Assembly: GCA_016906335.1 (NCBI GenBank)
Contig: JADEYG010000002.1
Coordinates: 62,001-126,000 of the forward strand
DNA: 64,000 nucleotides
Direction: 5' to 3'
Source: Novakomyces olei
Lineage: Eukaryota
Part shown: positions 3,212-31,885 of the stretch, piece after piece
Layout: every line of letters begins with the position of its first letter
Position numbering within the stretch: the first letter of the stretch is position 1
Translations under genes and position numbers: made by a program
The notes under the pieces: model-generated
What the model was told of the DNA's origin: nothing
Database searches by the model: none
What the model saw: only the letters and a program-made list of their open reading frames with translations

Positions 3212-3327
3212 CAATACCAGAAAGAGACAAATACAATGGGAAAAGCAAGATAAACCATACAACTCAATATCACAAAAGGGTGCATCCGTTGTAAGTTCAA
3301 TCACAATTGATCCAAAGAAAAGGATTG
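3212..3327 (+). pseudogene. 116-bp pol fragment of element B between the D and A insertions
   Basis: Near-identical to A 5502-5617 and continues at 8955 after the GATTG duplication. Confidence 0.9.
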
Positions 3328-3621
3328 TGTTAGGAGTGTAGATAATAAATAATTAAACATTGAATTACTTAAAGGGTCCTAAACGTGTACGGATTAAATC
3401 TGGAACCTCGGCATTTGATTAATAATTAATCACGCCATAGCGGAAGCTGACTCATGATTAGTCAAGGCTGACTCATAATTAATCACGCCATTTCGGGCTT
3501 TCGGACAATGGATTATTAATCCATTACAGGAGTCTATAATAAGGACACGGTTTCCCATAGTTTAGAACATAGTTTTTTCTATCTTTTAATTTATTTGTTA
3601 CAACAGTGAGTTACCCTCACA
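3328..3621 (+). repeat. 5' LTR of element A
   Basis: TGTTAGG...CCTCACA, direct repeat of 8661-8954. Confidence 0.97.
3448..3475 (+). promoter_or_regulatory. Cluster of AP-1/YAP-type bZIP sites in LTR A
   Basis: TGACTCA 3448-3454, TTAGTCA 3458-3464 and TGACTCA 3469-3475, upstream of the TATA-like motif at 3535. Confidence 0.55.
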
Positions 3622-4318
3622 CATTTTTTCACTGCTAACTAGGACAGTGACTCCCCCGTCTGGACAACGCCGACGGATTTACCCTCACGTTTTCTCTGAG
3701 CCTTTTGCAAATCTTTTGCGTCAGGCGAAAACTGATCCTCCTAAGGATAAGGTGTTGACTGGATATTGCCGTCAATACCCGGAGTCCAAGGAGCGAAAAC
3801 AAAACTCTGAGTCTGGACCTGCCGACCAGAGTGTTCGACCCTCTTCCAGCTTGACTCTTCAGCTGTCGAAGAGAAGAGAAAGAAACGCTCGCCGTTCAGA
3901 GGCCTTCAAGGAGCGTAAGAGAATTGAAACGGTTTCTAAACCATTTGCAACACCTCGTCCGAAACCACTTCCAACCCCGATTCCGGCCCCGCTTCCGAAA
4001 CCAGTTCCAGCACCAGTTCCAGCACCAGTTCCAAGATTACCGCTTACGGAGGAAGAAATATTTCGAAAAGAAGCTCATTGGACAAGCAAGGTTGCGGCTC
4101 AAATCAAATACGAGGACACCTACAATAATCTTGTGGCCAAAAGAATACAGGAACTGAGCAGGAAAAAAAAAACTAAGTATTTGCTTGACAACATCGTTGA
4201 GGACGAATACAGAATCCGTCTTTTTAAAGGAGAGGATCCAGACAAAGTTGAAAAGGACTACTACGAACATTTGGAACAAGGACGACAAAAGCCATCCTAT
4301 CTTAATACGCTTTTTTAA
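3605..4318 (+). CDS. Accessory ORF0 of element A, 223 aa, unknown function; join(3605,3648..4318)
   Basis: Open frame with no internal Met, homologous to 15319..16029 in C. Basic motif KRRERNARRSEAFKERKR, Pro-rich linker, conserved C-terminal domain. Confidence 0.85.
   Translation, partial: SELPSHIFSLLTRTVTPPSGQRRRIYPHVFSEPFANLLRQAKTDPPKDKVLTGYCRQYPESKERKQNSESGPADQSVRPSSSLTLQLSKRRERNARRSEAFKERKRIETVSKPFATPRPKPLPTPIPAPLPKPVPAPVPAPVPRLPLTEEEIFRKEAHWTSKVAAQIKYEDTYNNLVAKRIQELSRKKKTKYLLDNIVEDEYRIRLFKGEDPDKVEKDYYEHLEQGRQKPSYLNTLF
3606..3647 (+). other. Predicted 42-nt spliceosomal intron spanning the LTR end and PBS region of A
   Basis: Donor GTGAGT 3606-3611, branch GCTAAC 3634-3639, acceptor CAG 3645-3647. 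Removal gives CAAC-A|TG-ACT-CCC, in frame with ORF0. Confidence 0.8.
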
Positions 4319-4389
4319 ACTAGCTCATTAATTTAACTCAAATTTATTAATCTACTTTATTCATAAAATTAATTTAATTTTAATTAATT

Positions 4390-7300
4390 ATGGATTTTAA
4401 GATTAAATTACCTGAGCCTACGAAATTGAATGGTCGCCCAATGACCCATAGAGAGTTCCAGTCATGGAGACACTCTATGGTAAAATGGCTCGCCTATGTC
4501 AAGACAGGCGAACATCCTATTGCTATTTCAGATGTCGACTTGATTAGCATGTTTCTCGAATCAAATGCTTCGATCTATGCTGAGGAGCTCCGTGACAATA
4601 CTTCTCTCACAGCAAATCAAATGCTTGATCACCTTGAGAGAAGCATTGTTCCGAACGATTATCTACCTCGTGCATACAGCAAGTTTGTCACCTTCACTCA
4701 GGGCACAAGAAGCATTAGCCAATATGCAACGCAGCTTAAGCTCAAATCAATGGAACTTGAGATAGTCAACGAGGCAATCTTGATTCAACAATTCATACAT
4801 GGATTAAATGAAAGAACCAAACCTCAAATAATGGGATCATTGAGAAGTGCATTTGGAACTCAATCCGGTGATAGTTCGAACATGGTCAAATGGAATTGGC
4901 AAAACGTTGTTGATGTGGCTACAGGTTATGACTTTGCGACAGCAAGACCCTTTGTTGGAAATATGAGTACGAAAGCAGCCAGTCAGAGAACAGAGGCACG
5001 AGCTGATGTTCCTGAAAAGAGTGAACCAGAGAAACCTATTCTCCGAACAAGATGTACTTTTTGTCGCAGAACTGGGCACACCTACGAGCAATGTTTCAAA
5101 AGAAAGAATCAGTCAAGTGTGAGTGCTCTTCAAACAAGCACAGAAATAGATAGCGAAGAAATAAAACTTGAGTATCACTGTTCCGCTGTCCAAAATACCG
5201 GTCAACAATTTCTTGTAGTCCTACCAATTGATATAAACGGTAAAGAAATAAAATGTCAAATACTTATTGACACCGGGAGTGACCTTGACGTTATTGATTC
5301 GAACTTCTGCAATGTTCACCGACCAAAATACTATGAAAGTGACCATAAAATTGAAATGGCATTTCAAGGATCAAGAACTATTAGCCGACACATGGCAAGA
5401 ATACGATTTAAGGGATATGAGTTGAATTGCGCAGTGGCAAGACTGAGAACCTCTGACCTTCTCATCGGAATGGGAACACTAAGCAAACTTGGAGCAATTG
5501 TCAATACCAGAAAGAGACAAATACAATGGAAAAAACAAGATAAACCATACGATTCAATATCACAAAAGGGGGCAGCCGTTGTAAGTTCAATCACAATTGA
5601 TCCAAAGAAAAGGATTGATGTTCAGTCAGTTCGAGAACAAGACACAATTGACTCAAATAAGGTACTGGAAGTGCTACAAGACAAGTTCAAGCAAACTTTG
5701 GTAGCAAGTCCACCAAGCAAATTGCCTATAATGAGACCAGTGGTTGCAACATACGAGCCGATCGACCCACACAAGAAGTACAATATCAAAAAGTGGTATC
5801 CAAGCAAGAAGCTAATGATGCCCTTAAAACTGAAAATTGATGAACTTCTACACGCCAAAATGATATCAATTTCTACAGAAGAGCCAAGTGCCATATTATT
5901 TCCTATTCCTAAAGACAAGGACATGGTCAACAAGCTCACAGATCCAAAAGAAATCAAGAATTATCTGCGATTTGTCAATGACGCTAGACCTCGGAATGCG
6001 AACATGAAACGCTTTTACATTCAGGTTCCTCGCATTGACATTGTAGTTCAAGATATTGCCAGAGCAAAATACAGAACTAAGATTGACTTGAAGGACGCTT
6101 TCTTTCAATCTAGAATACAGCCTGGGCAAGAACATTATACGGCATTTTGGACGCCATTTGGAATATACCAATGGAATGTGATGCCACAAGGAGATCGAAA
6201 CTCTACTGCTATACAACAGCAGCTTATGGAGGAATTATTCAGACCCTACATTGGCATTTGGATGACAGTATATGTTGACGACATCATCATATACGATGAC
6301 GATGTCCAGGAACACTTGGATCACCTAGTGATTGTCTTTGGAATAATGTCTAAATGGGAACTATACGCTAGTCCAGCCAAGACCTTTCCATTCTGCAAAA
6401 GCTTTGTGGTACTAGGCAGACAGATCAGTGATGAAGGAATCAAAATGACTGAAAAATCAAGAAACTCCATACTACGACTAGAAACTCCAAAGAACATGAA
6501 ACAAATACAGAGACTGGTGGGCATGCTAAACTGGATTTCAACGTTCATACCCAATTTATCGTCACACATCTCAACATTCACTGAAATGAAGGAGTTTTCC
6601 TGGGATGAAACTAAGCAGAAAGGATTTGACAAAATAAAGTCTGCAGTTCAGCAAGACATAATACTCAAGCCATTTAACCCAGAGCCTCTGAACAATGGAA
6701 CAGAGAAATTATTCATGGGAATAGATGCCTCTCTGGTGGGCACTGGAGGTTGGCTAGGTCAAGGAAAAGAATGGCAAACATGCAGAATAATTGGGTTTAC
6801 CTCTAAGAAACTTGGAATAGCAGAATCCCACTATCCAGTTCACGAACTTGAATATCTAGCATGCATCAGAGCATTGGAGCATTTCGAAATATATGCTAGA
6901 GGATATCAGGTAAATTGTTTGACAGACAATAAAGCATTAAGTCGTCTTTTTTACTCGAAGAACGTTATGCTGTCGCGACGTCATCTACGATGGATGGATT
7001 TTTTGAATGAATTTGACATCAATATTATACACGTGCCAGGAACACTTAACGTCTTAGCAGACTTATTGTCACGCTCTCATTCACACTCAAAGGTCGCTGG
7101 AATCTCTATTGAACAAACCCCAAATACAGATATAGATGTAGAGATACACAATCTCTATCTAAAGGATACATATTGGGCAGAAATACTTGCAATATTGAAA
7201 AGCAACGAAGAAAATCCAGATACCGAAAAACTTAAATCAAGATATTGTCTCAAAGATAATCTCATTCACCTCAAATTTGATGACCGAATCTGTATTCCTT

Positions 7301-8685
7301 CAGGCTTCACAAACAAGATAATACAAGAACTTCACGACACATATCAAGGTGGACATGGAGGCATAAATAAGACAATAGCCGGTGTTGCGCGGACTTATTA
7401 TTGGCCAGCAATGGCAAAAGAAATTAAGGACTATGTGAAGTCGTGCGAGACGTGTGCTAAGAGCAAAATTACACCTCACAAGCCCATTGGTTTACTATTA
7501 GAGCTGAACATACCAAAGGCTCGATGGGAAACCATTGGAATGGATTTCATTACTGGGCTTCCTTTATCTGGAAAGGAAAAATACGATGCAATAATTTGTA
7601 TTGTTGACCGACTCACCAAACGCGCGCATTTTTGGCCAACACACACAACTATAACCGCTGAAGGCACAGCAGCTCTATTCTTGGATCGATATTTCTGCTT
7701 ACATGGTCTACCAAAAATAATTATTAGTGACCGAGATGTCAGGTTTATGTCAGAGTTTTGGACACAACTCACAAAGGTTCTTGAAGTCAAACTCAAACCA
7801 TCATCAAGCTATCACCCACAAACAAATGGGCAAACGGAAAGAACAAACAGGGTTCTCGAAGATTACCTACGCCTATTTACATATGCCAATCGTAACAACT
7901 TCACATGGCACAAATTGCTTTCGTTTGCAGAATTCTTTTATTCCTCAAGCAAACACTCTGCTATCACGATGACTCCATTTGAAGCTGACCTAGGATACAA
8001 TCCAAGAAGCTTAAGTGATCTTGCAATGTCTATTCCACAAAGTCAAGACAATTCATCATTCCTTGAAACTCTAGCAGCCAATCAAATACTCTGTCAAGAT
8101 GCCATAAGAGCCGCACATGACTTATCAAAGATTTATGCAGACAAAAACAGACTCAACATTGAATATGAAGTCAACGACTATGTATACCTGAGTACTGCAA
8201 ACATTCGAGAAATACCTGAACTATTTCAACATGACTTGACCAGAAAACTTCAATCCAAATACATTGGACCATACAAAATTGTTAAAAAGGTCAGTCCAGT
8301 GGCATATGAACTGGAACTACCCACAAATCTAAAATATCATTCAGTTGTTCATATCTCACAACTCAAAAAGCACAATGCAATGACTGAACAGAACGAACGT
8401 GAACAACCAAAACCAAAAGCTTTGCGACGCTATAAAGATAATACAGAACTTTATGCTATACAAAGCATAGTTGACCACGCTTGGTTCAGAGCTGACAAAA
8501 AGTCTACAACACCTAAAAAAGGCTACACCTTACTTTATCGAATTCGCTGGGAAGGATACAATCCTGACGAAGACACATGGGAGCCAAAACAACACCTACT
8601 ACATTCCAGACAACTCCTTGACAACTACAATTCGACACATCTCGAATTAGTGGGGGAGGATGTTAGGAGTGTAGATAATAAATAA
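4390..8685 (+). CDS. gag-pol: Single-ORF Gag-Pol of element A (Gag-CCHC-PR-RT-RNase H-IN-chromodomain)
   Basis: 1431 aa: CTFCRRTGHTYEQC, LIDTGS, YVDD, IDAS/ELE/TDN RNase H, HHCC plus GMDF/ISDRD/QTER integrase, YIGPY, chromodomain YRIRWEGYNPDEDTWEP. The stop lies inside the 3' LTR. Confidence 0.97.
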   Translation: MDFKIKLPEPTKLNGRPMTHREFQSWRHSMVKWLAYVKTGEHPIAISDVDLISMFLESNASIYAEELRDNTSLTANQMLDHLERSIVPNDYLPRAYSKFVTFTQGTRSISQYATQLKLKSMELEIVNEAILIQQFIHGLNERTKPQIMGSLRSAFGTQSGDSSNMVKWNWQNVVDVATGYDFATARPFVGNMSTKAASQRTEARADVPEKSEPEKPILRTRCTFCRRTGHTYEQCFKRKNQSSVSALQTSTEIDSEEIKLEYHCSAVQNTGQQFLVVLPIDINGKEIKCQILIDTGSDLDVIDSNFCNVHRPKYYESDHKIEMAFQGSRTISRHMARIRFKGYELNCAVARLRTSDLLIGMGTLSKLGAIVNTRKRQIQWKKQDKPYDSISQKGAAVVSSITIDPKKRIDVQSVREQDTIDSNKVLEVLQDKFKQTLVASPPSKLPIMRPVVATYEPIDPHKKYNIKKWYPSKKLMMPLKLKIDELLHAKMISISTEEPSAILFPIPKDKDMVNKLTDPKEIKNYLRFVNDARPRNANMKRFYIQVPRIDIVVQDIARAKYRTKIDLKDAFFQSRIQPGQEHYTAFWTPFGIYQWNVMPQGDRNSTAIQQQLMEELFRPYIGIWMTVYVDDIIIYDDDVQEHLDHLVIVFGIMSKWELYASPAKTFPFCKSFVVLGRQISDEGIKMTEKSRNSILRLETPKNMKQIQRLVGMLNWISTFIPNLSSHISTFTEMKEFSWDETKQKGFDKIKSAVQQDIILKPFNPEPLNNGTEKLFMGIDASLVGTGGWLGQGKEWQTCRIIGFTSKKLGIAESHYPVHELEYLACIRALEHFEIYARGYQVNCLTDNKALSRLFYSKNVMLSRRHLRWMDFLNEFDINIIHVPGTLNVLADLLSRSHSHSKVAGISIEQTPNTDIDVEIHNLYLKDTYWAEILAILKSNEENPDTEKLKSRYCLKDNLIHLKFDDRICIPSGFTNKIIQELHDTYQGGHGGINKTIAGVARTYYWPAMAKEIKDYVKSCETCAKSKITPHKPIGLLLELNIPKARWETIGMDFITGLPLSGKEKYDAIICIVDRLTKRAHFWPTHTTITAEGTAALFLDRYFCLHGLPKIIISDRDVRFMSEFWTQLTKVLEVKLKPSSSYHPQTNGQTERTNRVLEDYLRLFTYANRNNFTWHKLLSFAEFFYSSSKHSAITMTPFEADLGYNPRSLSDLAMSIPQSQDNSSFLETLAANQILCQDAIRAAHDLSKIYADKNRLNIEYEVNDYVYLSTANIREIPELFQHDLTRKLQSKYIGPYKIVKKVSPVAYELELPTNLKYHSVVHISQLKKHNAMTEQNEREQPKPKALRRYKDNTELYAIQSIVDHAWFRADKKSTTPKKGYTLLYRIRWEGYNPDEDTWEPKQHLLHSRQLLDNYNSTHLELVGEDVRSVDNK

Positions 8686-8954
8686 TTAAACATTGAATTA
8701 CTTAAAGGGTCCTAAACGTGTACGGATTAAATCTGGAACCTCGGCATTTGATTAATAATTAATCACGCCATAGCGGAAGCTGACTCATGATTAGTCAAGG
8801 CTGACTCATAATTAATCACGCCATTTCGGGCTTTCGGACAATGGATTATTAATCCATTACAGGAGTCTATAAAAAGGACACGGTTTCCCATAGTTTAGAA
8901 CATAGTTTTTTCTATCTTTTAATTTATTTGTTACAACAGTGAGTTACCCTCACA
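8661..8954 (+). repeat. 3' LTR of element A
   Basis: Direct repeat of 3328-3621, preceded by the PPT and followed by TSD GATTG. Confidence 0.97.
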
Positions 8955-8980
8955 GATTGATGTTCAGTCAGTAGCAAACT

Positions 8981-11815
8981 TTGGTTACAAATCCACCAAG
9001 CAAATCGCCTATAATGAGACCAGTGATTGCAACATACGAGCCAATCGACCCACACAAGAAGTACAATATCAAAAAGTGGTATCCAAGCAAGAAGCTAATG
9101 ATGCCCTTAAAGCTGAAAATTGATGGACTTCTACACGCCAAAATGATATCAATTTCTACAGAAGAGCCAAGTGCCATATTATTTCCTATTCCTAAAGATA
9201 AGGACATGGTCAACAAGCTCACAGATCCAAAAGAGATCAAGAATTACCTGCGATTTGTCAATGACGCTAGACCTCGGAATGCGAACATGAAACGCTTTTA
9301 CATTCAGGTTCCTCGCATTGACGTTGTAGTTCAAGATATTGCCAGGGCAAAATACAGAACTAAGATTGACTTGAAGGAAGCTTTCTTCCAATCTAGAATA
9401 CAGCCTGGGCAAGAACATTATACGGCATTTTGGACGCCATTTGAAATATACCAATGGAATGTGATGCCACAAGGAGATCGAAACTCTACTGCTATACAAC
9501 AGCAGCTGATGGAGGAACTATTCAGACCTTACATTGGCATTTGGATGACAGTATATGTTGACGACATCATCATATACGATGACGATGTCCAAGAAAACTT
9601 GGATCACCTAGTGATTGTCTTTGGAATAATGTCTAAATGGGAACTATACGCTAGGCCAGCCAAAACCTTTCCATTCTGCAAAAGCTTTGTGGTACTAGGC
9701 AGACAGATCAGTGATGAAGGAATCAAAATGACTGAAAAATCAAGAAACTCCATACTACGACTAGAAACTCCAAAGAACATGAAACAAATACAGAGACTGG
9801 TGGGCATGCTAAACTGGATTTCAACGTTCATACCCAATTTATCGTCACACATCTCAACATTCACTGAAATGAAGGAGTTTTCCTGGGATGAAACTAAGCA
9901 GAAAGGATTTGACAAAATAAAGTCTGCAGTTCAGCAAGACATAATACTCAAGCCATTTAACCCAGAGCCTCTGAACAATGGAACAGAGAAATTATTCATG
10001 GGAATAGATGCCTCTCTGGTGGGCACTGGAGGTTGGCTAGGTCAAGGAAAAGAATGGCAAACATGCAGAATAATTGGGTTTACCTCTAAGAAACTTGGAA
10101 TAGCAGAATCCCACTATCCAGTTCACGAACTTGAATATCTAGCATGCATCAGAGCATTGGAGCATTTCGAAATATATGCTAGAGGATATCAGGTAAATTG
10201 TTTGACAGACAATAAAGCATTAAGTCGTCTTTTTTACTCGAAGAACGTTATGCTGTCGCGACGTCATCTACGATGGATGGATTTTTTGAATGAATTTGAC
10301 ATCAATATTATACACGTGCCAGGAACACTTAACGTCTTAGCAGACTTATTGTCACGCTCTCATTCACACTCAAAGGTCGCTGGAATCTCTATTGAACAAA
10401 CCCCAAATACAGATATAGATGTAGAGATACACAATCTCTATCTAAAGGATACATATTGGGCAGAAATACTTGCAATATTGAAAAGCAACGAAGAAAATCC
10501 AGATACCGAAAAACTTAAATCAAGATATTGTCTCAAAGATAATCTCATTCACCTCAAATTTGATGACCGAATCTGTATTCCTTCAGGCTTCACAAACAAG
10601 ATAATACAAGAACTTCACGACACATATCAAGGTGGACATGGAGGCATAAATAAGACAATAGCCGGTGTTGCGCGGACTTATTATTGGCCAGCAATGGCAA
10701 AAGAAATTAAGGACTATGTAAAGTCGTGCGAGACGTGCGCTAAGAGCAAAATTACACCTCACAAGCCCATTGGTTTACTATTAGAGCTGAACATACCAAA
10801 GGCTCGATGGGAAACCATTGGAATGGATTTTATTACGGGGCTTCCGTTATCTGGAAAGGAAAAATACGATGCAATAATTTGTATTGTTGACCGACTCACT
10901 AAACGCGCGCATTTTTGGCCAACACACACAACTATAACCGCTGAAGGCACAGCAGCTCTATTCTTGGATCGATATTTCTGCTTACATGGCCTACCAAAAA
11001 TAATTATTAGTGACCGAGATGTCAGGTTTATGTCAGAATTTTGGACACACCTCACAAAGGTTCTTGAAGTCAAACTTAAACCATCATCAAGCTATCACCC
11101 ACAAACAAATGGGCAAACGGAAAGAACAAACAGGGTTCTCGAAGATTACCTACGCCTATTTACATATGCCAATCGTAACAACTTCACATGGCACAAACTG
11201 CTTTCATTTGCAGAATTCTTTTATTCCTCAAGCAAACACTCTGCTATCACGATGACTCCATTTGAAGCTGACCTAGGATACAATCCAAGAAGCTTAAGTG
11301 ATCTTGCAATGTCTATTCCACAAAGTCAAGACAATTCATCATTCCTTGAAACTCTAGCAGCCAATCAAATACTCTGTCAAGATGCCATTCGAGCTGCACA
11401 TGACTTATCAAAAATTTATGCAGACAAAAACCGACTCAACATTGAATATGAAGTCAACGACTATGTATACCTGAGTACTGCAAACATTCGAGAAATACCT
11501 GAACTATTTCAACATAACTTGACAAGAAAACTTCAATCTAAATACATTGGACCATACAAAATTGTTAAAAAGGTCAGTCCAGTGGCATATGAACTGGAAC
11601 TACCCACAAATTTAAAATATCATTCAGTTGTTCATATCTCACAACTTAAAAAGCACAGTGCAATGACTGAACAGAACGAACGTGAACAACCAAAACCAAA
11701 AGCTTTGCGACGCTATAAAGATAATACAGAACTTTATGCTATACAAAGCATAGTTGATCACGCTTGGTTCAGAGCTGACGAAAAGTCTACAACACCTAAA
11801 AAAGGCTACGCCTAA
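8981..11815 (+). pseudogene. Disrupted pol of element B (RT-RNase H-IN)
   Basis: 944-codon frame homologous to A, with a ~60-bp deletion near 8972, a TTA>TAA stop within the chromodomain, and the 5' part cut off by insertions. Confidence 0.9.
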
Positions 11816-11943
11816 CTTTACTGAGTTCGCTGGGGAGGATACACTCCTGAAGAAGACACATGGGAGCCAAAACAACACCTACTACATTCCAGACAACTCC
11901 TCGACAACTACAATTCGACACATCTCGAATTAGTGGGGGAGGA

Positions 11944-12226
11944 TGTTAGGAGTGTAGATAATAAAAATAATTAAACATTACTTAAAGGGTCCTAAAACAA
12001 TCTAAAAACCTCGGCATTTGATTAATAATTAAGTACGCCATAGCGGAAGCTGACTCATGATTAGTCATGGCTGACTCATAATCAATCATGCCATTTCGGG
12101 CCTTCGGACAATGGATTATTAATCCGTTACAGGAGTCTATAAAAGGACACAGTTTCCCATAGTTTAGATACATACTTTTTCTATCTTTTTTTTATTTATT
12201 GGTTACAACAGTGAGTTATCCTCACA
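11944..12226 (+). repeat. 3' LTR of element B
   Basis: Diverged copy of LTR A with indels. Retains both TGACTCA sites, TATAAAAG and AACAGTGAGT. Confidence 0.92.
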
Positions 12227-12378
12227 CTCTCCCACTCGGGAGGAGGATGTTTCGACTTCTGTGACTGGCACTCTGGAAGACACGGAGATAATACAAACTG
12301 CTTCCACTCGGGAGGAGGAAAATACCAGCACAAATAGTCTGGACGATGACATAATGAGTACTAATAAAACGGAAAAAA

Positions 12379-14200
12379 ATGAAAAGCATGGACGCAAAGA
12401 GCAATTTAAACTCAGTAGATGTGACCGAGCTTTACGACCCAATGGAGGTCGGAGACGAGTCACTGAAAAGAAAAAGAGTGGGAGCCGAAGAATATATAGA
12501 CCCAGAGACGATTGTACTAAATGAGCTACCTCTAATTCGCCGGTCTGACAGACTTAAAGAGAAGGATCTAAAGAGGACACGTATACAACAACATAACATC
12601 TCTGGCCCATATCTGGCAAAAGACGTAATAATACCTGTAAGTGTAAAGCAGGCAATACATTCAAGACATGGCCAGGAATACAAAAGGGCTATGGAAGCGG
12701 AACTAGAGTCATTATTCGAAAAAAATGTAATTAAATCTCTAGATACAAATGAAGTTCCTAATAAAGTTGTGTCTACGAAATGGGTGTTCGCCGTGAATTC
12801 AAATCACTTAGGTGAAGTTACGAGGTTTAAAGCCCGGCTCGTTGCTCGTGGGAATGAGCAGACACAGATGATCTGGATACTTACGCTTCTACGCTTGGAT
12901 TTAAAGAGCTGCGCATGCTGTATGCACATGCTGCCATAAGAAAGGCTAAAATCCTAACACTCGACATTAAAACAGCATTTTTAAATGCGCCGATTGATGA
13001 GGAGCTATATATCAAAATAGCTCACGAAGGGGGTAATCCAGAGATATACAAAGTGCAAAAAGCACTCTACGGTTTTCGACAATCGCCACGACTCTGGTAC
13101 AACATGTACAAAGATTTTTTGGAGGACGAACTTGGCTTTTCCCGTACAGGCAAGGAGAAAATATCTTTATCAGATCTACGGGGATGTTTCTATGTGTCGT
13201 CGCTATTTATGTAGATGACACAATGGTCATCTGTGAAAATGAGAGCATGAGCCTAGCTGTGATTGAAAAAACCCAGCTCAAATTTGAGACTGATGAGGCC
13301 GAACCTATTACTAAATTCCTGGTGATTGAGACTACACAGTCGCCCACGCTGGACACTGTTTCAGTGTGCGCAAAGGAATATATTCGAAAACTATTGGTTA
13401 GATTCGAAACCGGAGAATACTATTCACAGAAGAGACCATCCAGTAAAGTGCCTTTGCTAGCAGAAGAAGGTAGCCCTGGTGCACGTTTACTAGAAGGTCA
13501 AGAAGTAAAAAGATATCAAAGCCTAGTAGGATCCTTGAGATACGTCACCACTGTTGCAAGACCCGACATTGCAAATGCAGTAAGGCGAGTATCATATGGA
13601 TTGCAAGGACCTACAGTTCACAACATGAGAATGGCAGAAAAAATATTAGGATATCTAAAGTCTACTATGAGTTTTTGTCTAACCTATCATCCTAGAAAGG
13701 ATATAGACAAACAGCTTTCGGTCTACACTGATGCAAGCTTTGCTAGCTCAGAAGACAATGGAAAGTCTTGCATGGGAATTGCTATTCTCATGGCTGAAGC
13801 TCCAGTGTATTGGGAAAGCAAGACAATCAGGGATTACAAAGGTAGGTCAATGGATACAGAGCTAGTGGCGCTATACGAGGGTCTAAATCAGGCCAGGCAC
13901 CTACACTTTATACTCCATCAATTGGAGCATAATCAACTCCAAGAAATACAAGTATTTGAAGATAACACAGGTGTTATTGAAACCCTACGACGAAACAAGC
14001 CATACGGAGGCCACCCTGCTCTCCAAAATAAGGCAGAGGCATTAAAGGCATGTGTGCAAAACCGTGAAGCAAATATATGCTATATTTGCACGGACGAACA
14101 GTTGGCAGATGGATTTACAAAGGTACTTTCAGTTAATAAAATGCAGGAATTTGTGTCACGACTAGGGATGAATTCAAATACAGGGACAGCGAACGCATGA
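12379..14200 (+). pseudogene. Frameshifted Copia RT-RNase H
   Basis: Motifs split over three frames: KWVF..RFKARLVARG; DIKTAFLNA and KALYGFRQSPRLWY; YVDD, YTDAS, FEDN, QLADGFTK. Confidence 0.92.
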
Positions 14201-14690: not shown

Positions 14691-14939
14691 ATAGATATGT
14701 CAGATAGTTCTAGTCAATGTGTTCTTGCAGTAACTAGAAGATTAAGATTAATTCTACCACACATCCGCTGTAAAAGTTTTATTTGTATTTATTATATTCT
14801 TAAGCCAGTCATATTTATTTGTAATGTGGACTCCGGCTCCGGAGTCCAGTATAAATGTAGAGTTATTCGAGGCTTTATCCTTTATTTTTCTCGTGTTCAT
14901 TGCCATAAATGCAATCTTTGGTTTATTCTTATTGCCTGG

Positions 14940-15299
14940 TGTTAGGCCATAGTGTAGATAGTAAAAATAAAATTAAAAATGACATAATTAAATTAAATTA
15001 ATTCACTCCAAATAGGGAATTTAACCGATTTGGAGGAATATTTAATTACTAATCATTAAATCAAGCCACTGATCGGGTATCTGTATCTTATCAATGATAA
15101 GGTGATTACTAATTGATCGGTTACTTCTGATCCTATCTGATTACTAATTGATAGGAAAGTCTTGATCCTATCTCTTGGCAAATTACGAAGATAAGAGCTG
15201 AGCCTTGAAGTCTATAAAAGGACAAGGTTTTCCATAGTTTAAGGGTAGATTTAATTAATCTAAAAGTTATAACAGTGAGTAATTTCCACAGTTATAACA
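14940..15299 (+). repeat. 5' LTR of element C
   Basis: TGTTAGG...GTTATAACA, TATAAAAG at 15213, direct repeat of 20370-20729. Confidence 0.97.
15046..15147 (+). promoter_or_regulatory. Three YAP/Pap1-type response elements in LTR C
   Basis: TTACTAA at 15046-15052, 15106-15112 and 15141-15147, upstream of the TATA box. Confidence 0.5.
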
Positions 15300-16029
15300 A
15301 CTTTTTTCACTGCTAACATTGTCAGTGAATCCGTCAGGAGACAGCCGACGGCCTCGCATTGTCTACTCTGAGACATTTGCAAATCTCTTGAAGCAGGCAA
15401 AAACCGATCCAAAGGTTGTTGTCTCGGCTGGCTCTATCCGCCGAAGCAATACACCTAAGGATAAGGATAAAACCTCTGTGTCTGGACTTACCGACCAGAG
15501 TGCCCACTCAGAGAAAAATACCTCGATTCATCAATTGAATAAGAGGAAAGAAAGAAACGCTCGCCGATCGCAGGCATTCAAAGAGCGTAAACTCAACGAT
15601 CGAATTTCCAAGGGGCCTGAATCAATTGCTGCTATTGCGGCAAAGGTGCTCAGAAAACCTCCTCCACCAGCGCCGAGACTTGGTCCTTACCCAGCTCTTA
15701 CAGCTCCTTCAGTTTCGCCGGCCACTATTTCTACTACAACTCCTCGTTTACCTCTATCAGCGGAAGAAGTTTTTCGAAAACAAGCGCACTGGACAAGCAA
15801 AGCGGCGGCCAATCTACGTTACGAGGAAACATACAACAAATTGGTGGCCAATCGCATTCAAGAGCTACACAATAGGAAGAAAACAAAATATCTTCTGGAC
15901 AACATCGTTGAGGACAGATTCAAAATTCGTCTCTACAGAGGAGAAGATCCAAACAAAGTTGAGAAGGATTATTACGATCACTTGAAAAGTGGACAGCAAT
16001 CACCAGCGTTTTTTAATACTTTGTATTAG
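15274..16029 (+). CDS. Accessory ORF0 of element C, 234 aa; join(15274,15326..16029)
   Basis: No internal Met. Homologous to ORF0 of A (FANLL.QAKTDP, RNARRS.AFKERK, AHWTSK, KKTKYLLDNIVED, GEDP.KVEKDYY). Confidence 0.85.
15275..15325 (+). other. Predicted 51-nt spliceosomal intron spanning the LTR end and PBS region of C
   Basis: Donor GTGAGT 15275-15280, branch GCTAAC 15312-15317, acceptor CAG 15323-15325. Removal gives TAAC-A|TG-AAT-CCG, in frame with ORF0. Confidence 0.8.
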
Positions 16030-16095
16030 TCTTTTATATTTAATATATTTAATTCTTTATCAATTTAATTTAAATTGATTAAAATATATTCTAAA

Positions 16096-19000
16096 ATGGA
16101 CTTCAAAATCAAGCTGCCTGAACCAGCAAAGCTGAATGGTCATTCAATGACCCATAGGGAGTTCCAATCATGGAGAGGCTCTATGGTTAAATGGCTGACA
16201 TATGCCAAAGCAGGAGGCAGTGTCACCGGGATTTCAGATATAGACTTAATTAGCATGTTCCTCGAATCGAACGCTACAATCTATGCTGAAGAACTCAGGG
16301 ACAATGCTAGTGTAACGACAGATCAGATGCTTGATCATCTGGAGCGAAGCATTGTACCCAACGACTATTTACCACGCGCTTACAGCAAGTTTGTTACCTT
16401 CGCTCAAGGAACAAAAAGCATTAGCCAATATGCCACGCAACTTAAATTGAAATCAATGGAACTAGAAATAGTTAACGAAGCCATCTTGATTCAACAATTC
16501 ATCCATGGGCTAAATGAGAGAACAAAGCCTCAAATAATGGGATCTTTGAGAAGTGCATTTGGAAACCAGTCGGGAAACAACACAGGAATGACGAAATGGA
16601 AATGGCAAAGTGTGGTTGATGTGGCAACAGGCTACGATTTTACTGCAACAAGACCATACGTAGGAAACATGAATCCTAAACAAGGCAACCAACAAACTGA
16701 AACAAAGGCAACTACTTCTGAGAAGAAAGAACCAGAGAAGCCAGCCCTCAGAACAAGATGTACCTTTTGTCGCCGCACTGGGCACACGTACGAGCAATGC
16801 TTTAAACGAAAGAATCAATCAACCATCAGTGCTCTTAAAGAAGATTCTGGAATAGTTAGCGAAGAAATCAAACTTGATTACAATTGTTCTGCTGTCCAAA
16901 ACACAAACCAACAATTTCTAGTTAATTTACCTGTGGAAATAAATGATAAAAAAATCAAATGTCAGGTCCTGATTGATACTGGAAGTGATATTGACGTTAT
17001 TGACTCAAACTTTTGCAATGTTCACCGACCAACATACAAAGAAAGTGACCACAAAATTCAAATGGCCTTTCAAGGATCGAAAACTGTGAGCAGATATATG
17101 GCCAAAGTCATGTTCAAGGGGAGCGAGTTAAATTGCGCCGTTGCAAGACTTAGAACTTCTGATCTATTGATTGGCATGGGAACACTAAGTAAGCTTGGGG
17201 CAATTGTGAACACTCGCAAACGACATATACAATGGCAGGACGATGCAAATGAAAGAAGGTTTGTCAAGCCAGAAGTACTTCCTGTAGTCAGCTCAATAAC
17301 AATTGATTACAACAAGAGAATTGAAGTCCAACAAGTTACAAATGAGGACTTGGTTGACCCAGAAAAAGTACTGCAGATACTTCAAGACAAGTTTGATCAA
17401 ACTTTGATCAAGGATCCTCCAAGCAAGTTGCCTATAATGAGACCTGTGGTTGCTACATATGAGCCAATTGATCCAGAAAAAAGGTATAACATAAAAAAGT
17501 GGTACCCAAGCAAAAAGCTTATGTTGCCTCTGAAAGTAAAGATTGATGAGCTTTTAGAGGCAAAGATGATCTCAATCTCTAGCGAAGAACCTAGTGCAAT
17601 ATTGTTTCCAATTCCCAAAGACAAAGAAATGGTTAACAAGCTAACAGATCCTAAAGAAATAATTAAATATTTGAGATTTGTTAATGATGCTCGACCTCGC
17701 AATGCAAACATGAAGCGTTTCTACATTCAAGTACCACGTATTGACATAGTTGTACAAGACATTGCCCGAGCAAAATACAGAACTAAGATTGATTTGAAGG
17801 ACGCTTTCTTTCAATCAAGAATACAACCCGGACAGGAACACTACACGGCATTCTGGACACCATTTGGGATATATCAGTGGAACGTCATGCCTCAAGGAGA
17901 TCGTAATTCCACTGCTATACAGCAACAACTTATGGAGGAGCTCTTCAGACCTTACATTGGAATATGGATGACAGTCTATGTCGATGACATAATAATATAT
18001 GACGATGATGTCCAAGCACATCTGGACTATCTGGTGCTAGTTTTTTGTATTATGTCAAAGTGGGAACTATACGCGAGTCCAACCAAAACATTTCCGTTTT
18101 GCAAGAACTTTGTTGTGCTGGGGAGACAAATTAGTGATGAAGGAATCAAAATGACTGATAAATCAAAAAACTCCATACTGCGACTGGAACCACCAAAGAA
18201 TATTAAGCAAGTACAAAGATTGGTTGGAATGCTGAATTGGGTTTCAACGTTCATACCAAACTTATCCTCACACATTTCAACATTCACTGAGATGAAGGAG
18301 TTTTCTTGGGACGAAACAAAACAAAAAGGCTTTGATAAAATCAAGAAAGCAGTTCAGCACGACATAGTACTTTCACCATTTGACCCTGAGCCCCTGAATA
18401 ATGGTACAGAAAAACTATTCATGGGAATAGATGCTTCACTAGTTGGTACAGGTGGATGGCTAGGACAAGGACAAGACTGGAGAAAATGCAGAGTAATAGG
18501 CTTCACGTCGAAAAAATTAGGGATAGCTGAATCACACTATCCTGTACATGAACTTGAATATCTTGCATGCATACGAGCTCTTGATCATTTTGAAATATAT
18601 GCTCGAGGTTACCAAGTCAATTGTTTAACAGACAACAAAGCTCTGAGTCGCCTCCTTTACTCCAAAAATGTTATGCTTTCACGAAGACACCTTAGATGGA
18701 TGGATTTTTTGAATGAGTTCGATATTAATATTATTCATGTTCCTGGAACTGAAAATATCTTGGCTGATCTACTTTCAAGAACACACGGAAAAACAGCTGA
18801 TGTAGGTGCAATTTCCGTACAAATCTCGCCCCAGAATAATTTAAAATTTGAGCTGGCCTACGAAAAGGACAAACATTGGTCCAAAATACTCACTATTTTG
18901 AAAAATCCAAACAATTTTGCAGACAACGAAAGCGTAAAAATCAAATCGCGCTACTACATCCAAGACGGTATAATACATCTCAAATACGATGATAGAATCT

Positions 19001-20382
19001 GCCTACCAACAGATTTCACAAACATCATAATAAGAGAATCACATGACACCTACCAAGGAGGGCATGGAGGCATAAAGAAAACAATAGCAGGCGTAGGCCG
19101 CAAATACTACTGGCCAGGTATGGCAAAAGAAATAAATGAATATGTCAGATCATGTGAAACGTGTGCTAAAAGCAAAATTATACCTCAAAAGCCAATTGGA
19201 CTATTGCAAGAACTCGATATACCGAGTAATCGTTGGCAAACAATAGGCATGGACTTCATCACTGGACTACCAGCTTCGGGGACTCAAAAGTTTGATGCTA
19301 TAATTTGCATAGTTGATCGTCTAACCAAAAGAGCTCATTTCTGGCCCACGCACACAACTGTAACAGCACAAGGAACTGCACAGCTATTTTTGGAAAGATA
19401 CTTCTGTCTACACGGCTTACCAACTGCAATAATAAGTGACAGAGATGTAAGATTTATGTCTGAATTTTGGCAGACACTTACAAAAATTCTTCAAATCAAA
19501 CTGAAGCCATCATCAAGCTATCACCCACAGTCCAACGGTCAAACCGAACGTACAAATCGTGTATTGGAAGACTATCTTCGTCTTTTCATTTATGCCAATA
19601 AAAACAACTTCAGCTGGCACACATTATTATCGTTTGCCGAATTCTTTTACTCTTCAAGCCAACACTCCGCCATATCAATGACACCCTTTGAGGCGGATCT
19701 TGGCTACATCCCACGCAGTCTTACTGACTTATCAATGCCCGAAACACCGAACAAAGATACTTCCTCTTTTATAAACACTCTGGAGGCCAACAAAATTCTT
19801 TGTCAAGATGCTATCAGAACAGCACATGATTTATCAAAAATCTATGCGGATGAAAAGCGACTAAATGTTGAATATAATGTTAATGACCTGGCTTATTTAA
19901 GCACAGCCAACATACGAGAAATACCGGAGCTATTCCACGATGTTCTCACACGAAAATTACAATCAAAATACATTGGTCCATTCAAAATTATTCAAAAAAT
20001 CAGTCCTGTTTCATATGAATTGGAACTACCAACATCCATAAAATATCATCCCGTTGTTCACATTTCTCAATTAAAGAAACATCATCCAATGAACAGTCAC
20101 AACACCAGAGAACAACCTAAGCCTAAAGCTCTGCGACGCTACAAAGACAACACAGAATTATATGTAATTAAACAAATCGTTGATCATGGATGGTTCAAAG
20201 GATCTAAAAAATCCAATACACCGAAACAGGGGTATAAGCTTTTATACCGAATCCGCTGGGAAGGCTATGGACCTGAAGACGATACATGGGAACCTAAATC
20301 TCACTTGGCTAACTCAACCAACCTGCTGAACAACTACAATTCGACACATCTCGAATCAGTGGGGGAGGATGTTAGGCCATAG
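16096..20382 (+). CDS. gag-pol: Single-ORF Gag-Pol of element C with chromodomain
   Basis: First ATG at 16096 (MDFKIKLPEP, as in A). CCHC, LIDTGS, YVDD, RNase H, integrase, YIGPF and YRIRWEGYGPEDDTWEP. Confidence 0.97.
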   Translation: MDFKIKLPEPAKLNGHSMTHREFQSWRGSMVKWLTYAKAGGSVTGISDIDLISMFLESNATIYAEELRDNASVTTDQMLDHLERSIVPNDYLPRAYSKFVTFAQGTKSISQYATQLKLKSMELEIVNEAILIQQFIHGLNERTKPQIMGSLRSAFGNQSGNNTGMTKWKWQSVVDVATGYDFTATRPYVGNMNPKQGNQQTETKATTSEKKEPEKPALRTRCTFCRRTGHTYEQCFKRKNQSTISALKEDSGIVSEEIKLDYNCSAVQNTNQQFLVNLPVEINDKKIKCQVLIDTGSDIDVIDSNFCNVHRPTYKESDHKIQMAFQGSKTVSRYMAKVMFKGSELNCAVARLRTSDLLIGMGTLSKLGAIVNTRKRHIQWQDDANERRFVKPEVLPVVSSITIDYNKRIEVQQVTNEDLVDPEKVLQILQDKFDQTLIKDPPSKLPIMRPVVATYEPIDPEKRYNIKKWYPSKKLMLPLKVKIDELLEAKMISISSEEPSAILFPIPKDKEMVNKLTDPKEIIKYLRFVNDARPRNANMKRFYIQVPRIDIVVQDIARAKYRTKIDLKDAFFQSRIQPGQEHYTAFWTPFGIYQWNVMPQGDRNSTAIQQQLMEELFRPYIGIWMTVYVDDIIIYDDDVQAHLDYLVLVFCIMSKWELYASPTKTFPFCKNFVVLGRQISDEGIKMTDKSKNSILRLEPPKNIKQVQRLVGMLNWVSTFIPNLSSHISTFTEMKEFSWDETKQKGFDKIKKAVQHDIVLSPFDPEPLNNGTEKLFMGIDASLVGTGGWLGQGQDWRKCRVIGFTSKKLGIAESHYPVHELEYLACIRALDHFEIYARGYQVNCLTDNKALSRLLYSKNVMLSRRHLRWMDFLNEFDINIIHVPGTENILADLLSRTHGKTADVGAISVQISPQNNLKFELAYEKDKHWSKILTILKNPNNFADNESVKIKSRYYIQDGIIHLKYDDRICLPTDFTNIIIRESHDTYQGGHGGIKKTIAGVGRKYYWPGMAKEINEYVRSCETCAKSKIIPQKPIGLLQELDIPSNRWQTIGMDFITGLPASGTQKFDAIICIVDRLTKRAHFWPTHTTVTAQGTAQLFLERYFCLHGLPTAIISDRDVRFMSEFWQTLTKILQIKLKPSSSYHPQSNGQTERTNRVLEDYLRLFIYANKNNFSWHTLLSFAEFFYSSSQHSAISMTPFEADLGYIPRSLTDLSMPETPNKDTSSFINTLEANKILCQDAIRTAHDLSKIYADEKRLNVEYNVNDLAYLSTANIREIPELFHDVLTRKLQSKYIGPFKIIQKISPVSYELELPTSIKYHPVVHISQLKKHHPMNSHNTREQPKPKALRRYKDNTELYVIKQIVDHGWFKGSKKSNTPKQGYKLLYRIRWEGYGPEDDTWEPKSHLANSTNLLNNYNSTHLESVGEDVRP

Positions 20383-20729
20383 TGTAGATAGTAAAAATAA
20401 AATTAAAAATGACATAATTAAATTAAATTAATTCACTCCAAATAGGGAATTTAACCGATTTGGAGGAATATTTAATTACTAATCATTAAATCAAGCCACT
20501 GATCGGGTATCTGTATCTTATCAATGATAAGGTGATTACTAATTGATCGGTTACTTCTGATCCTATCTGATTACTAATTGATAGGAAAGTCTTGATCCTA
20601 TCTCTTGGCAAATTACGAAGATAAGAGCTGAGCCTTGAAGTCTATAAAAGGACAAGGTTTTCCATAGTTTAAGGGTAGATTTAATTAATCTAAAAGTTAT
20701 AACAGTGAGTAATTTCCACAGTTATAACA
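20370..20729 (+). repeat. 3' LTR of element C
   Basis: Direct repeat of 14940-15299, followed by TSD CCTGG. Confidence 0.97.
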
Positions 20730-20789
20730 CCTGGCTTTCCATTCAGGAACCAGCAGTTTCTTTTGATATGCCCGACTTTGTTACAATGG

Positions 20790-21420
20790 TGTAAGACGGT
20801 CCTTACAGCTACAACCGCTGGGGGCCGGCCGTGTATAGTTTAAACTGAAGTAAAGGAATAAGAGATATCAAAGAAACCGAAAGCGATTACTGTAAAGCTT
20901 ACCGAGAGTAATATAATATATTACTCCCACTTTGAGATAATCAACCCGTGAAGGGCGAGAGGCCTTCACGGGCAACTATAAACTAAACTACGTTGTGGAG
21001 GAGCGGATGCTCCTTCGCATTCTAAACTACTCTTCCCAAGCTAACTTGTGCGACCTTCGCACAAATTAGAGAGGGAAGCTCTCAACCTAAACTAATCTAT
21101 GAAATAACTATGAATGTTCTCGCGCTAGCGGAGTGCGAAGGGTCGCACTCGCTAGCGTGCGAGAATTAGAACGGGAAGCGAGGTTCGTACACATTGTGCA
21201 TGGAGCCCCTCGCTCCCGTGGGCCAAGCTGGCTTAGTGCGCGTACCTACATGCGCACTAAGTCAGATTCTACGTCCCAAGACCATCGCGTTACGCGCCGA
21301 CTGGTCTTGGGCCGCGTTGGCGAAGCTTGCGACACGCGGACAACCCAAATCCGACTAAAGGCGTCGCCCCTTGCTTCCCAACGCGGCTGTCAGGAACTCC
21401 CCAAGGCGAGGATCATGACA
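20790..21420 (-). mobile_element. Solo LTR (631 bp) inserted in the Copia-2 zinc knuckle
   Basis: TGTAAGA...CATGACA, TSD AATGG at 20785-20789 and 21421-21425. Strand inferred from the promoter motif shared with LTR D. Confidence 0.9.
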
Positions 21421-21978
21421 AATGGTAACATTTTGGAGGGGACTTTGTTCTGCTGTCTTTGGCATAATGAGCAATTTTGATGAGGTATTCTCCATTTTCT
21501 TTATTCTCGCTCAAGTCGTTAACTCTGTCAATTATTTTTGTTCTTATGTCTTGAAGTGTCACACCAGTAATGCCAAGAAGAGCTTTAATTCCTTGAAATT
21601 CTTGAGGGAGCCCATTCACATAATTAAGCATTTTGTCTTCGTTGTCCATCTCAGCTCCAGACGCTGTCGCCTCCGTTTCCAATTCGTCCACCCTGTTGAG
21701 ATATTGGTAAATATCTTTGAACTGATCTAGCCTAAGCTGATCAAGTTGCTTTATTGTTTCTCTAAGGTGGCGTTTGGTGCTCCTGCCATAAAGTTGCTCG
21801 AGAAGTATCAGTACTTCAGTACCATTTTCATGGTTTCTGAAGCTGAACACCATCTCGGGAGACACACACGACGCAATCATAGACAGCAGCTGAGTTTCTT
21901 TTCTTTTGTATTCATTTTGCGCTTTCAGTCCAGTGTTTTCTTTTGCTGCAATGATGCTCTGATCATCCAGCTCCTTAG
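21421..21978 (-). pseudogene. Central gag segment of Copia-2
   Basis: LLEQLYGRS...IYQYLNRVDEL...YVNGLPQEFQGI, typical of Copia gag; interrupted at both ends by solo LTRs. Confidence 0.88.
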
Positions 21979-22607
21979 TGTCATGATCCTCGCCTTGGCG
22001 AGTCCCCGACAGCCGCGTTGGGAAGCGAGAGGCGACGCCTGTAGTCGGACTTGGGTTGTCCGCGTGTCGCAAGCTTCGCCAACGCGGCCCAAGACCAGTC
22101 GGCGCGTAACGCGATGGTTTTGGGACGTAGAAGTTGTCTTAGTGCGCATGTAGGTACGCGCACTAAGCCAGCTTGGCCCACGGGAGAGAGGGGCTCCATG
22201 CACAATGTGCACGGACTTCGCTTCCCGTTCTCATTCTCGCACGCTAGCGAGTGCGACCCTTTGCACTCCGCTAGCGCGAGAACAATCCATAGTTATTTCC
22301 ATAGACTAGTTTAGGTTGAGAGCTTCCCGCTCTAACTTGTGTGACCTTCGCATAAGTTAGCTTGGGAAGAGTAGTTTAGAGTGCGGAGCATCCGCTCCTC
22401 CGTAGCTTAGTTTAGTTTATAGTTGCCCGTGAAGGCCTCTCGCCCTTCACGGGTTGATTATCTCAAAGTGGGAGTAATATATTATATTACTCCCGGTAAG
22501 CCTTACAATAATCGCTTTCTGTTCCTATTGTTTCGTAATTCCATTTGCTTCTGTTAAACTATACACGGCCGGCCTCCAGCGGTTGTAGTTGTAAGAACCG
22601 TCTTACA
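21979..22607 (+). mobile_element. Solo LTR (629 bp), same family as 20790-21420, opposite orientation
   Basis: TGTCATG...TCTTACA, TSD CTTAG at 21974-21978 and 22608-22612, reverse-complement similarity to 20790-21420. Confidence 0.9.
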
Positions 22608-31208: not shown

Positions 31209-31885
31209 TGCGAGGGCTCTCAAACTTTATTGTCGTCAATGGACTAACGTGAAATAATATTTAGAGAATCAAAAGACCGTAACGCTGACCGTAACCCTAA
31301 TCCTGTTGATATTTTCCAGACTCACAATTTTTAGTATCATTTTCTCCAAGTCGGTTCAATTGAATATATTATGTTTTGAATATCATTTGTCTTTTAGATA
31401 CTGTGGAGAAATTGACTCTGTATACCTTTTGTAAATATTATTTCTTTGAAATAATTCTGTCTTTACGGTACTTATTAAATTCTCTAAATTCCATATTCAG
31501 TCTTTACCGATTTATTATTGAATAATATATATATCCCTGACAGCGCCTCTTCGCCTTGGGAGACCTTTATCACTAGTCGGATTGTTGATATCAACCATTC
31601 GAACTTTAAAATACTTTTAAAAACTCGGCAGATATTATATTTCCTGAAATATATTTCTTTTAAACATTCTGTTGATTATTCTCTAATATATTTCTAGTAA
31701 ACATTATTTTATAATTGTCTTTTATATTTATATAACTATTCTCTTTTAAACAATATTTTCTCAATATTTTCTCAATATTTTCTCCATATTTTCTCAATAT
31801 TTTCTCAATATTTTCTAAATATTCTAGTATATTGCTATTAATACTCTAGTATATTCATAATAATGTATATACAATTTAGCGCAAG

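Follow-up and report, generated by a model that had tools for sequence, protein, structure and literature searches.

A candidate intron across the primer-binding site as the proposed source of the start codon for an upstream ORF in two chromovirus families of Novakomyces olei

Splicing is used to express accessory genes in retroviruses, pararetroviruses, and a few long terminal repeat (LTR) retrotransposons. The first open reading frame (ORF I) of rice tungro bacilliform virus (RTBV) starts at a non-AUG codon. In the same virus, splicing joins a start codon in the leader to the distal ORF IV (PMC5902531). Spliced accessory mRNAs are known also for plant env-like ORFs. Among Tf1/sushi chromoviruses, the 5′ end of the element's own mRNA primes reverse transcription by pairing with the primer-binding site (PBS) (bioRxiv 2022.12.06.519325; PMC4600332). 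Upstream accessory ORFs, such as ORF0 in rice and the small ORFs (sORFs) of the MDG1 group, evolve faster than gag-pol, yet they are constrained (PMC3485330; bioRxiv 2025.03.14.642691). In this work, we analyzed a window of 64,000 nucleotides from the ascomycete fungus Novakomyces olei (GenBank assembly GCA_016906335.1, contig JADEYG010000002.1, positions 62,001 to 126,000 of the forward strand; all positions below are those of this window) and found two families of Ty3/gypsy chromoviruses, represented by elements A and C, that carry an ORF devoid of ATG (ORF0) upstream of gag. Upstream accessory ORFs, spliced accessory mRNAs, and scanning through AUG-free leaders are all known; what would be new here is a start codon built by splicing, with both the PBS and the LTR end inside the intron. 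No start codon split by such an intron of an LTR retrotransposon was found in the full-text literature searched, which takes in only a minority of subscription journals.

The reading that we favor, with modest confidence, is that a very short interval at the junction of the LTR and the element interior is a real intron that holds the PBS, that its removal makes the start of ORF0, and that the AUG-free unspliced RNA serves Gag-Pol synthesis and replication. We favor it because of the ATG-free leader and ORF0, the coding constraint on an ORF without Met, the context of the joined AUG, and the likeness of the interval to host introns.

Element C is young and intact, with identical LTRs, a target-site duplication (TSD), and an open gag-pol frame of 1428 aa; its lack of an upstream ATG is therefore not a product of decay. 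The Pfam domains of this frame (gag, protease, the reverse transcriptase domain RVT_1, RNase H, integrase, SH3_Tf2-1, and Chromo) follow the Ty3/gypsy order with a chromodomain integrase. An earlier note on this DNA had claimed that the LTR of element C differs from that of element A over most of its length and nevertheless keeps a set of intron signals. Our comparison agrees: the two LTRs (360 and 294 bp) agree in no more than 38% of their aligned columns (146 of 389), and the signals stand in element C as quoted, namely A15274 followed by GTGAGT at 15275-15280, TTTTTTCACTGCTAAC at 15302-15317, and CAG at 15323-15325 followed by TG. Taking out these 51 nt gives AAC-ATG-AAT-CCG-TCA-GGA and opens a frame of 234 codons that ends with TAG at 16027-16029. 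In element A, the removal of 42 nt gives AAC-ATG-ACT, in frame with its own ORF0. In either family, an A occupies position -3 of the joined AUG (context AAC-AUG-A).

The putative intron of element C takes in the terminal 25 nt of the LTR, a 2-nt spacer, the block of T-run, PBS, and branch motif, and the final CAG. The block begins 2 nt past the terminal CA of the LTR, where a PBS belongs, such that the interval covers the LTR terminus together with the sole possible location of the PBS. The donor precedes the LTR end by 25 nt in element C and by 16 nt in element A, and the distance from the branch A of CTAAC to the 3′ splice site is 9 nt in both. As the earlier note had it, the length of the interval (51 versus 42 nt) and the filler between branch and acceptor (one of five columns identical) differ, whereas the donor, branch, acceptor, and split codon are kept. 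The islands of splice signals are 88-100% identical between the families, compared with 20-33% in their surroundings and with differences at 63-73% of the synonymous sites. Judged from this comparison, the conserved motifs of donor, branch, and acceptor are clearly under selection. That part of the note's inference stands; its extension to splicing as the selected function does not follow from conservation alone, as pairing between the PBS and a self-primer could conserve the same letters. The note had also listed the LTR of a third copy, B, as keeping the donor. It does, but LTR B and LTR A are members of one family, with 84% identity (252 of 299 columns). Copy B is therefore not independent evidence, and the comparison comprises two independent families, not three.

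The strict pattern GTRAGT...CTAAC...AG is not rare, occurring three times in the window (both strands, 128 kb) against 2.4 ± 1.5 times in 100 shuffles; the signal therefore rests on position and conservation rather than on motif count. For comparison with the host, we used three hand-read introns of the alpha-adaptin gene, which measure 41, 147, and 54 nt and carry CTGAC, CTAAC, and TTAAC motifs with the branch A 8 nt upstream of the AG. Continuity of the Pfam profile at position 375 supports one of these introns; the 23 candidates of a heuristic intron finder, being mostly ambiguous, were left aside. Both intervals fall within this size range, and their branch spacing is host-like (9 versus 8 nt). 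Upstream, the distance from TATA box to donor is 61 nt in C and 71 nt in A. The conserved block that contains it is probably the promoter and start region, and we infer that transcription starts upstream of the donor, near the end of this block.

ORF0 lies between the 5′ LTR and gag on the sense strand in both elements. The two predicted proteins are 53% identical, and the ratio of nonsynonymous to synonymous change (dN/dS) is 0.24 over 218 codons, with a proportion of synonymous differences (pS) of 0.63 and dS near saturation. The frame has no internal stop in either element, compared with 3 and 11-15 stops in the other two frames. By these measures, ORF0 is a real coding sequence under purifying selection. 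Neither ORF0 encodes a single Met, for which the chance is about 0.004 each given the Met frequency of gag-pol. Moreover, ATG is absent from all three frames of the leader and ORF0 in both elements. The resulting ATG-free runs are the two longest on either strand of the window (1002 nt in C and 882 nt in A, with 549 nt for the next and a mean gap of 69 nt), and ATG is the sole triplet missing from that of element C. When ORF0 is recoded synonymously, just 4.1% (C) and 2.5% (A) of the versions are likewise free of out-of-frame ATG. As no AUG precedes gag, unspliced RNA would bring scanning ribosomes directly to the gag AUG, which has the context AAAAUGG in element C; ORF0, in turn, must begin either at an AUG that splicing creates or at a non-AUG codon.

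These data bear on the view that ORF0 is a dead or non-coding leader with signals that arose by chance. The pattern count given above speaks for this view, as does the lack of an ORF0 homologue in the collections searched. Against it stand the low dN/dS at near-saturated dS, a frame that is open in both families, ATG-free runs longer than any others in the window, the identical LTRs, and the intact gag-pol, and we regard it as most improbable.

ORF0 of the A/C elements resembles two groups of described accessory ORFs. The ORF0 of the rice elements Retrosat2, RIRE3, and RIRE8 is likewise a sense ORF between the 5′ LTR and gag and is specific to its lineage (PMC3485330), and sORF1 and sORF2 of the Drosophila MDG1 group are likewise lineage-specific upstream sense ORFs (bioRxiv 2025.03.14.642691). 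The accessible text of these two sources describes no case without a genomic ATG. No sequence similarity of the A/C ORF0 to known accessory ORFs was found in Pfam or in a profile search of 1.84 billion representative proteins.

If the interval is an intron, the full-length transcript of these elements would have two fates. The unspliced RNA, with no AUG ahead of that of gag-pol, would yield Gag-Pol by ribosome scanning; it would also retain the LTR end and the PBS and thus could be reverse-transcribed as the genome. In a share of the transcripts, the host spliceosome would excise the PBS-containing intron (51 nt in C, 42 nt in A), and the A/UG junction would form the sole start codon for ORF0. 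The spliced mRNA would then be translated into the ORF0 protein and could no longer be primed for its own reverse transcription; having lost the PBS, it would give no new copies. In this scheme the T-run would double as the pyrimidine tract and CTAAC as the branch point, and the embedded UCACUG could pair with either copy of CAGUGA, that of the donor or that of the acceptor. We conclude that the region of LTR end, PBS, and intron is likely dual-coded.

Several observations weigh against this intron reading, some of which concern priming. A PBS of the tRNA type (TGG...) is absent after the LTR in both A and C, and the PBS must fall somewhere within 26-28 nt that also hold the branch motif. The best conserved duplex between LTR and post-LTR sequences is precisely that of the donor block with the branch block (GUUA..CAGUGAG with UUCACUG.UAAC, 7+4 bp), at about -8 to -11 kcal/mol (consensus -7.95 kcal/mol). 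All 11 of its paired columns are invariant and, for this reason, show no covariation. CACTG is kept, though splicing does not require it. Conservation alone is therefore no proof of splicing, because selection for priming could keep the same letters. Other points concern the transcript itself. In element A, the first AG past the branch motif belongs to TAG (3640-3642) and follows the branch A by 4 nt; if AG 3641-3642 were used, no AUG would result, and the CAG that forms ATG is the second AG. An AG 4 nt past the branch A is probably too close for use. A transcript that began at the donor block, by analogy with the self-primer of Tf1/sushi elements (bioRxiv 2022.12.06.519325), would have a first exon of just some 6-9 nt. 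No RNA read mapped to 14850-20369 in any of the three runs carrying the same species label, a result that is uninformative either way. Lastly, only two independent families could be compared, and the protein, viral, and metagenome searches described below found no relatives outside the window.

The priming observations are the core of an account without splicing, in which the conserved blocks form a self-priming duplex of the Tf1/sushi type: the self-primer GUUAYAACAGUGAG would lie at or near the 5′ end of the RNA, the PBS UUCACUGCUAAC would follow the LTR, and ORF0 would be translated from a weak non-AUG codon of the unspliced RNA (in-frame CUG at 15310 in C and 3632 in A, or GUG at 15325 and 3647), with RTBV-like leaky scanning onward to gag. 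The Tf1/sushi group (Tf1, Tf2, Tj1, Tosmo, and Tcry1) consists of Ty3/gypsy chromoviruses that lack a tRNA-type PBS and have a post-LTR block complementary to a block of the LTR, as in A and C. A self-priming PBS of this kind adjoins the 5′ LTR and pairs with roughly the first 11 nt of the element's mRNA. Tf1 and Tf2 share with A and C a single gag-pol ORF, and the SH3 domain in element C is of the Tf2 type. This account also makes sense of the conserved CACTG and predicts an AUG-free upstream ORF just as well as the intron reading does. CTG and GTG codons occur in frame in both families. RTBV provides a precedent in which ribosomes scan about 900 nt through the AUG-free ORFs I and II to a later ORF, much as would be required here, and the MDG1-group sORFs are expressed from transcripts that, in contrast to the intron reading, are not spliced (PMC5902531; bioRxiv 2025.03.14.642691).

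The fit to these precedents is incomplete, however. With 7+4 bp and an internal loop, the duplex in A/C falls short of the Tf1 type in length, and its pairing begins 7 nt past the LTR end; the self-primer is a candidate, and the link to Tf2 rests on the Pfam match to SH3_Tf2-1. For the Tf1/sushi elements, the portions of the sources at hand describe neither an ORF between LTR and gag nor splicing (bioRxiv 2022.12.06.519325; PMC4600332). RTBV differs in that splicing fuses a whole leader uORF, whereas in A/C the codon itself would be split (A/UG); in A/C, moreover, the putative intron is 42-51 nt long and would hold the LTR end and PBS, and it is the AUG-free ORF that splicing would serve (PMC5902531). 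Without splicing, the T-run has no explanation, and the distance from TATA box to donor block (53 nt in C versus 62 nt in A) is odd for an exact RNA 5′ end. The contexts of CTG and GTG, the in-frame near-cognate codons common to unspliced A and C, are poor and weaker than that of the joined AUG; none combines a purine at -3 with G at +4. The consensus GTGAGT, the CTAAC at host-like spacing, and the in-frame AUG in good context would all have to be coincidences. On balance we consider the account without splicing rather unlikely.

Splicing and priming may also compete. CAGTGA occurs at both donor and acceptor with its complement between them, and all three are invariant in A and C. UCACUG could pair with the donor, which would mask the 5′ splice site and allow priming, or with the acceptor CAGUGA, which would form a small hairpin with CUAAC in the loop; the choice of partner would set the balance between replication and ORF0 expression. 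Such a switch would elaborate the intron reading rather than replace it. The hairpin is predicted at -7.8 and -7.6 kcal/mol in the two elements (z -2.6 and -2.5), similar to the consensus energy of the donor-PBS duplex given above. These energies are modest, only two sequences are available, and no covariation is seen; we consider such a switch quite improbable. As a separate observation, the palindrome GTTATAAC occurs twice in element C, before the donor (15267-15274) and at the LTR end (15291-15298), and its copies fold to a stem of 8 bp that encloses the 5′ splice site. In element A this location is taken by another stem, GTGAG/CTCAC; both stems would mask the donor.

Returning to the favored intron, a close parallel is Cer1 of Caenorhabditis elegans, in which the accessory protein CERV is made only from spliced genomic RNA, with unspliced RNA serving as the Gag-Pol mRNA and genome (PMC10309623). 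Retroviral accessory and env mRNAs are spliced as well. Cer1 differs in that CERV lies downstream of pol and depends on a large intron, whereas the A/C intron would be tiny, sit at the LTR/PBS junction, and build the start codon (PMC10309623). If the intron is real, a single cut would separate the messenger for the accessory protein from that for the genome and Gag-Pol, in a very compact overlap of codes: promoter-proximal LTR, priming site, splice signals, and start codon. These elements would then offer a clean system in which to study how a retroelement of a short-intron fungus balances splicing with the supply of genomes. By analogy with CERV, our guess is that ORF0 may have a regulatory or RNA-handling role; a role like that of Rev or CERV is likewise a guess. 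The most far-reaching version would place a splice switch inside the replication origin: intron loss would make the accessory start codon and block reverse transcription, competing PBS pairings would set the ratio, and an arginine-rich ORF0 protein would feed back on unspliced RNA, like Rev or CERV. We regard this version as speculative and unlikely.

The ORF0 protein of element C is predicted to be largely helical. It would comprise a helix of strongly basic character at residues 67-94, a linker rich in proline, and a helical C-terminal part that is conserved; the AlphaFold model has a mean pLDDT of 53.9, too poor for a fold search. An invariant basic stretch, KR.ERNARRS.AFKERK, is encoded at 15526-15591 (residues ~67-88) in C and 3860-3925 in A. 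Its N-x5-AF-(K/R)-x-R-(K/R) spacing is that of the basic region of the host bZIP factor encoded at 39712-40908 and presumably resembles the Yap/Pap1 type. The assignment of ORF0 to the bZIP family was rejected, with a match to the host bZIP factor at E = 2 (BLAST), no leucine zipper, and no Pfam bZIP domain. Over the first 30 codons of ORF0 (15328-15417 in C, 3650-3739 in A), pS is 0.35, compared with 0.55-0.76 elsewhere. This low value just past the acceptor suggests an extra constraint at the RNA level, such as packaging, a priming structure, or a splicing enhancer.

Searches for relatives of ORF0 found none among proteins of near length, among the 1.84 billion representatives (A+C profile), in the ESM Atlas, or in viral and metagenome contigs. 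The best E value among PDB sequences was 0.47, and Pfam at E ≤ 10 returned nothing but a meaningless match at 0.16. A gag-pol profile, with patterns drawn from gag only, had no match on viral contigs. A DNA pattern scan of metagenomes gave a single match, L001, a GC-rich contig with the motif in unrelated sequence, which we took as chance. By these searches, ORF0 is an orphan that is missing from every protein collection searched. For annotation, this serves as a warning: an ORF without ATG behind a 1-kb ATG-free leader escapes gene callers.

The positions of all features are listed in Table 1.

Table 1. Features of elements A and C and of copy B in the window, with the conservation of aligned blocks between A and C.
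Feature	Positions	Strand	Description	Identical columns, A versus C
Element A	3328-8954	+	second family, same chromovirus type	
TSD of element A	3323-3327, 8955-8959	+	GATTG	
LTRs of element A	5′ 3328-3621, 3′ 8661-8954	+	294 bp	
ATG-free stretch of element A	3509-4389	+	882 nt, ends at gag ATG 4390	
Putative intron of element A	3606-3647	+	42 nt; A3605, GTGAGT, CTAAC 3635-3639, CAG 3645-3647 then TG	
ORF0 of element A	3648-4318	+	222 codons (3650-4315), no Met	
gag-pol of element A	4390-8685	+	80% protein identity with gag-pol of element C	
Copy B, right part	8960-12226	+	element A family; left part 3212-3327	
3′ LTR of copy B	11944-12226	+	donor block retained	
Element C	14940-20729	+	Ty3/gypsy chromovirus	
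TSD of element C	left 14935-14939, right 20730-20734	+	CCTGG (5 bp)	
5′ LTR of element C	14940-15299	+	360 bp, TG...CA, identical to 3′ LTR	
LTR 5′ end				19/24
ATG-free stretch of element C	15095-16095	+	1002-nt spacing, ATG 15094 to gag ATG 16096	
TATA box and downstream block	15208-15243	+	TATAAAAGG from 15214; kept in family A	31/37
Donor block	15266-15281	+	AGTTATAACA then GTGAGT; 5′ splice site 15274/15275; also best complement of post-LTR block	14/16
Putative intron of element C	15275-15325	+	51 nt, GT...AG signals	
LTR tail				5/20
T-run/branch block	15302-15317	+	pyrimidine run and CTAAC branch motif; candidate branch A 15316, at PBS location	16/16
Branch-to-acceptor filler				1/5
CAGTGA at acceptor				6/6
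ORF0 of element C	15326-16029	+	TG of split start 15326-15327, 233 Met-less codons 15328-16026, TAG 16027-16029	
gag-pol of element C	16096-20382	+	single ORF, 1428 aa, Pfam domains	
Polypurine tract	20361-20369	+	GGGGGAGGA, adjoins 3′ LTR of element C	
3′ LTR of element C	20370-20729	+	360 bp	

Positions 1 to ~22,300 form a nest of retrotransposons that adjoins ordinary host genes. Copy B is an older member of the element A family, and element A sits inside its pol: at 3212-3327, the left flank shares 95% identity with the interior of element A, and the pol frame continues across the insertion. Near 3212, copy B is cut off leftward by another element, such that its 5′ LTR and ORF0 fall outside the window. 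Positions 1-~3210 carry a distinct minus-strand Ty3/gypsy element with a gag that contains Ty3-capsid and zinc knuckle domains (1632-2594) and a pol in another frame (1-1785) that runs past the window edge. Its gag opens with an ordinary ATG near 2586, and its leader has a long A-run but no ORF0; the ORF0 design is therefore specific to the A/C lineage.

The host genes in the window encode MDM31/32, a CAAX protease, alpha-adaptin, a GH76 enzyme, and the bZIP factor. An exact look-up of six window proteins in a large protein collection found none of them (0/6); the best matches of the MDM31 protein, from Pezizomycotina, Saitoella, and Lipomycetes, are ~52% identical, and on these matches a Schizosaccharomyces host was rejected. 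A 611-codon ORF without Pfam match lies in a GC-rich patch at 31880-33721 (GC 0.58, compared with ~0.42 around it). Within the nest, Copia-type fragments with RVT_2 and copia gag domains flank element C on either side, at 12358-14200 on the plus strand and 21413-22138 on the minus strand.

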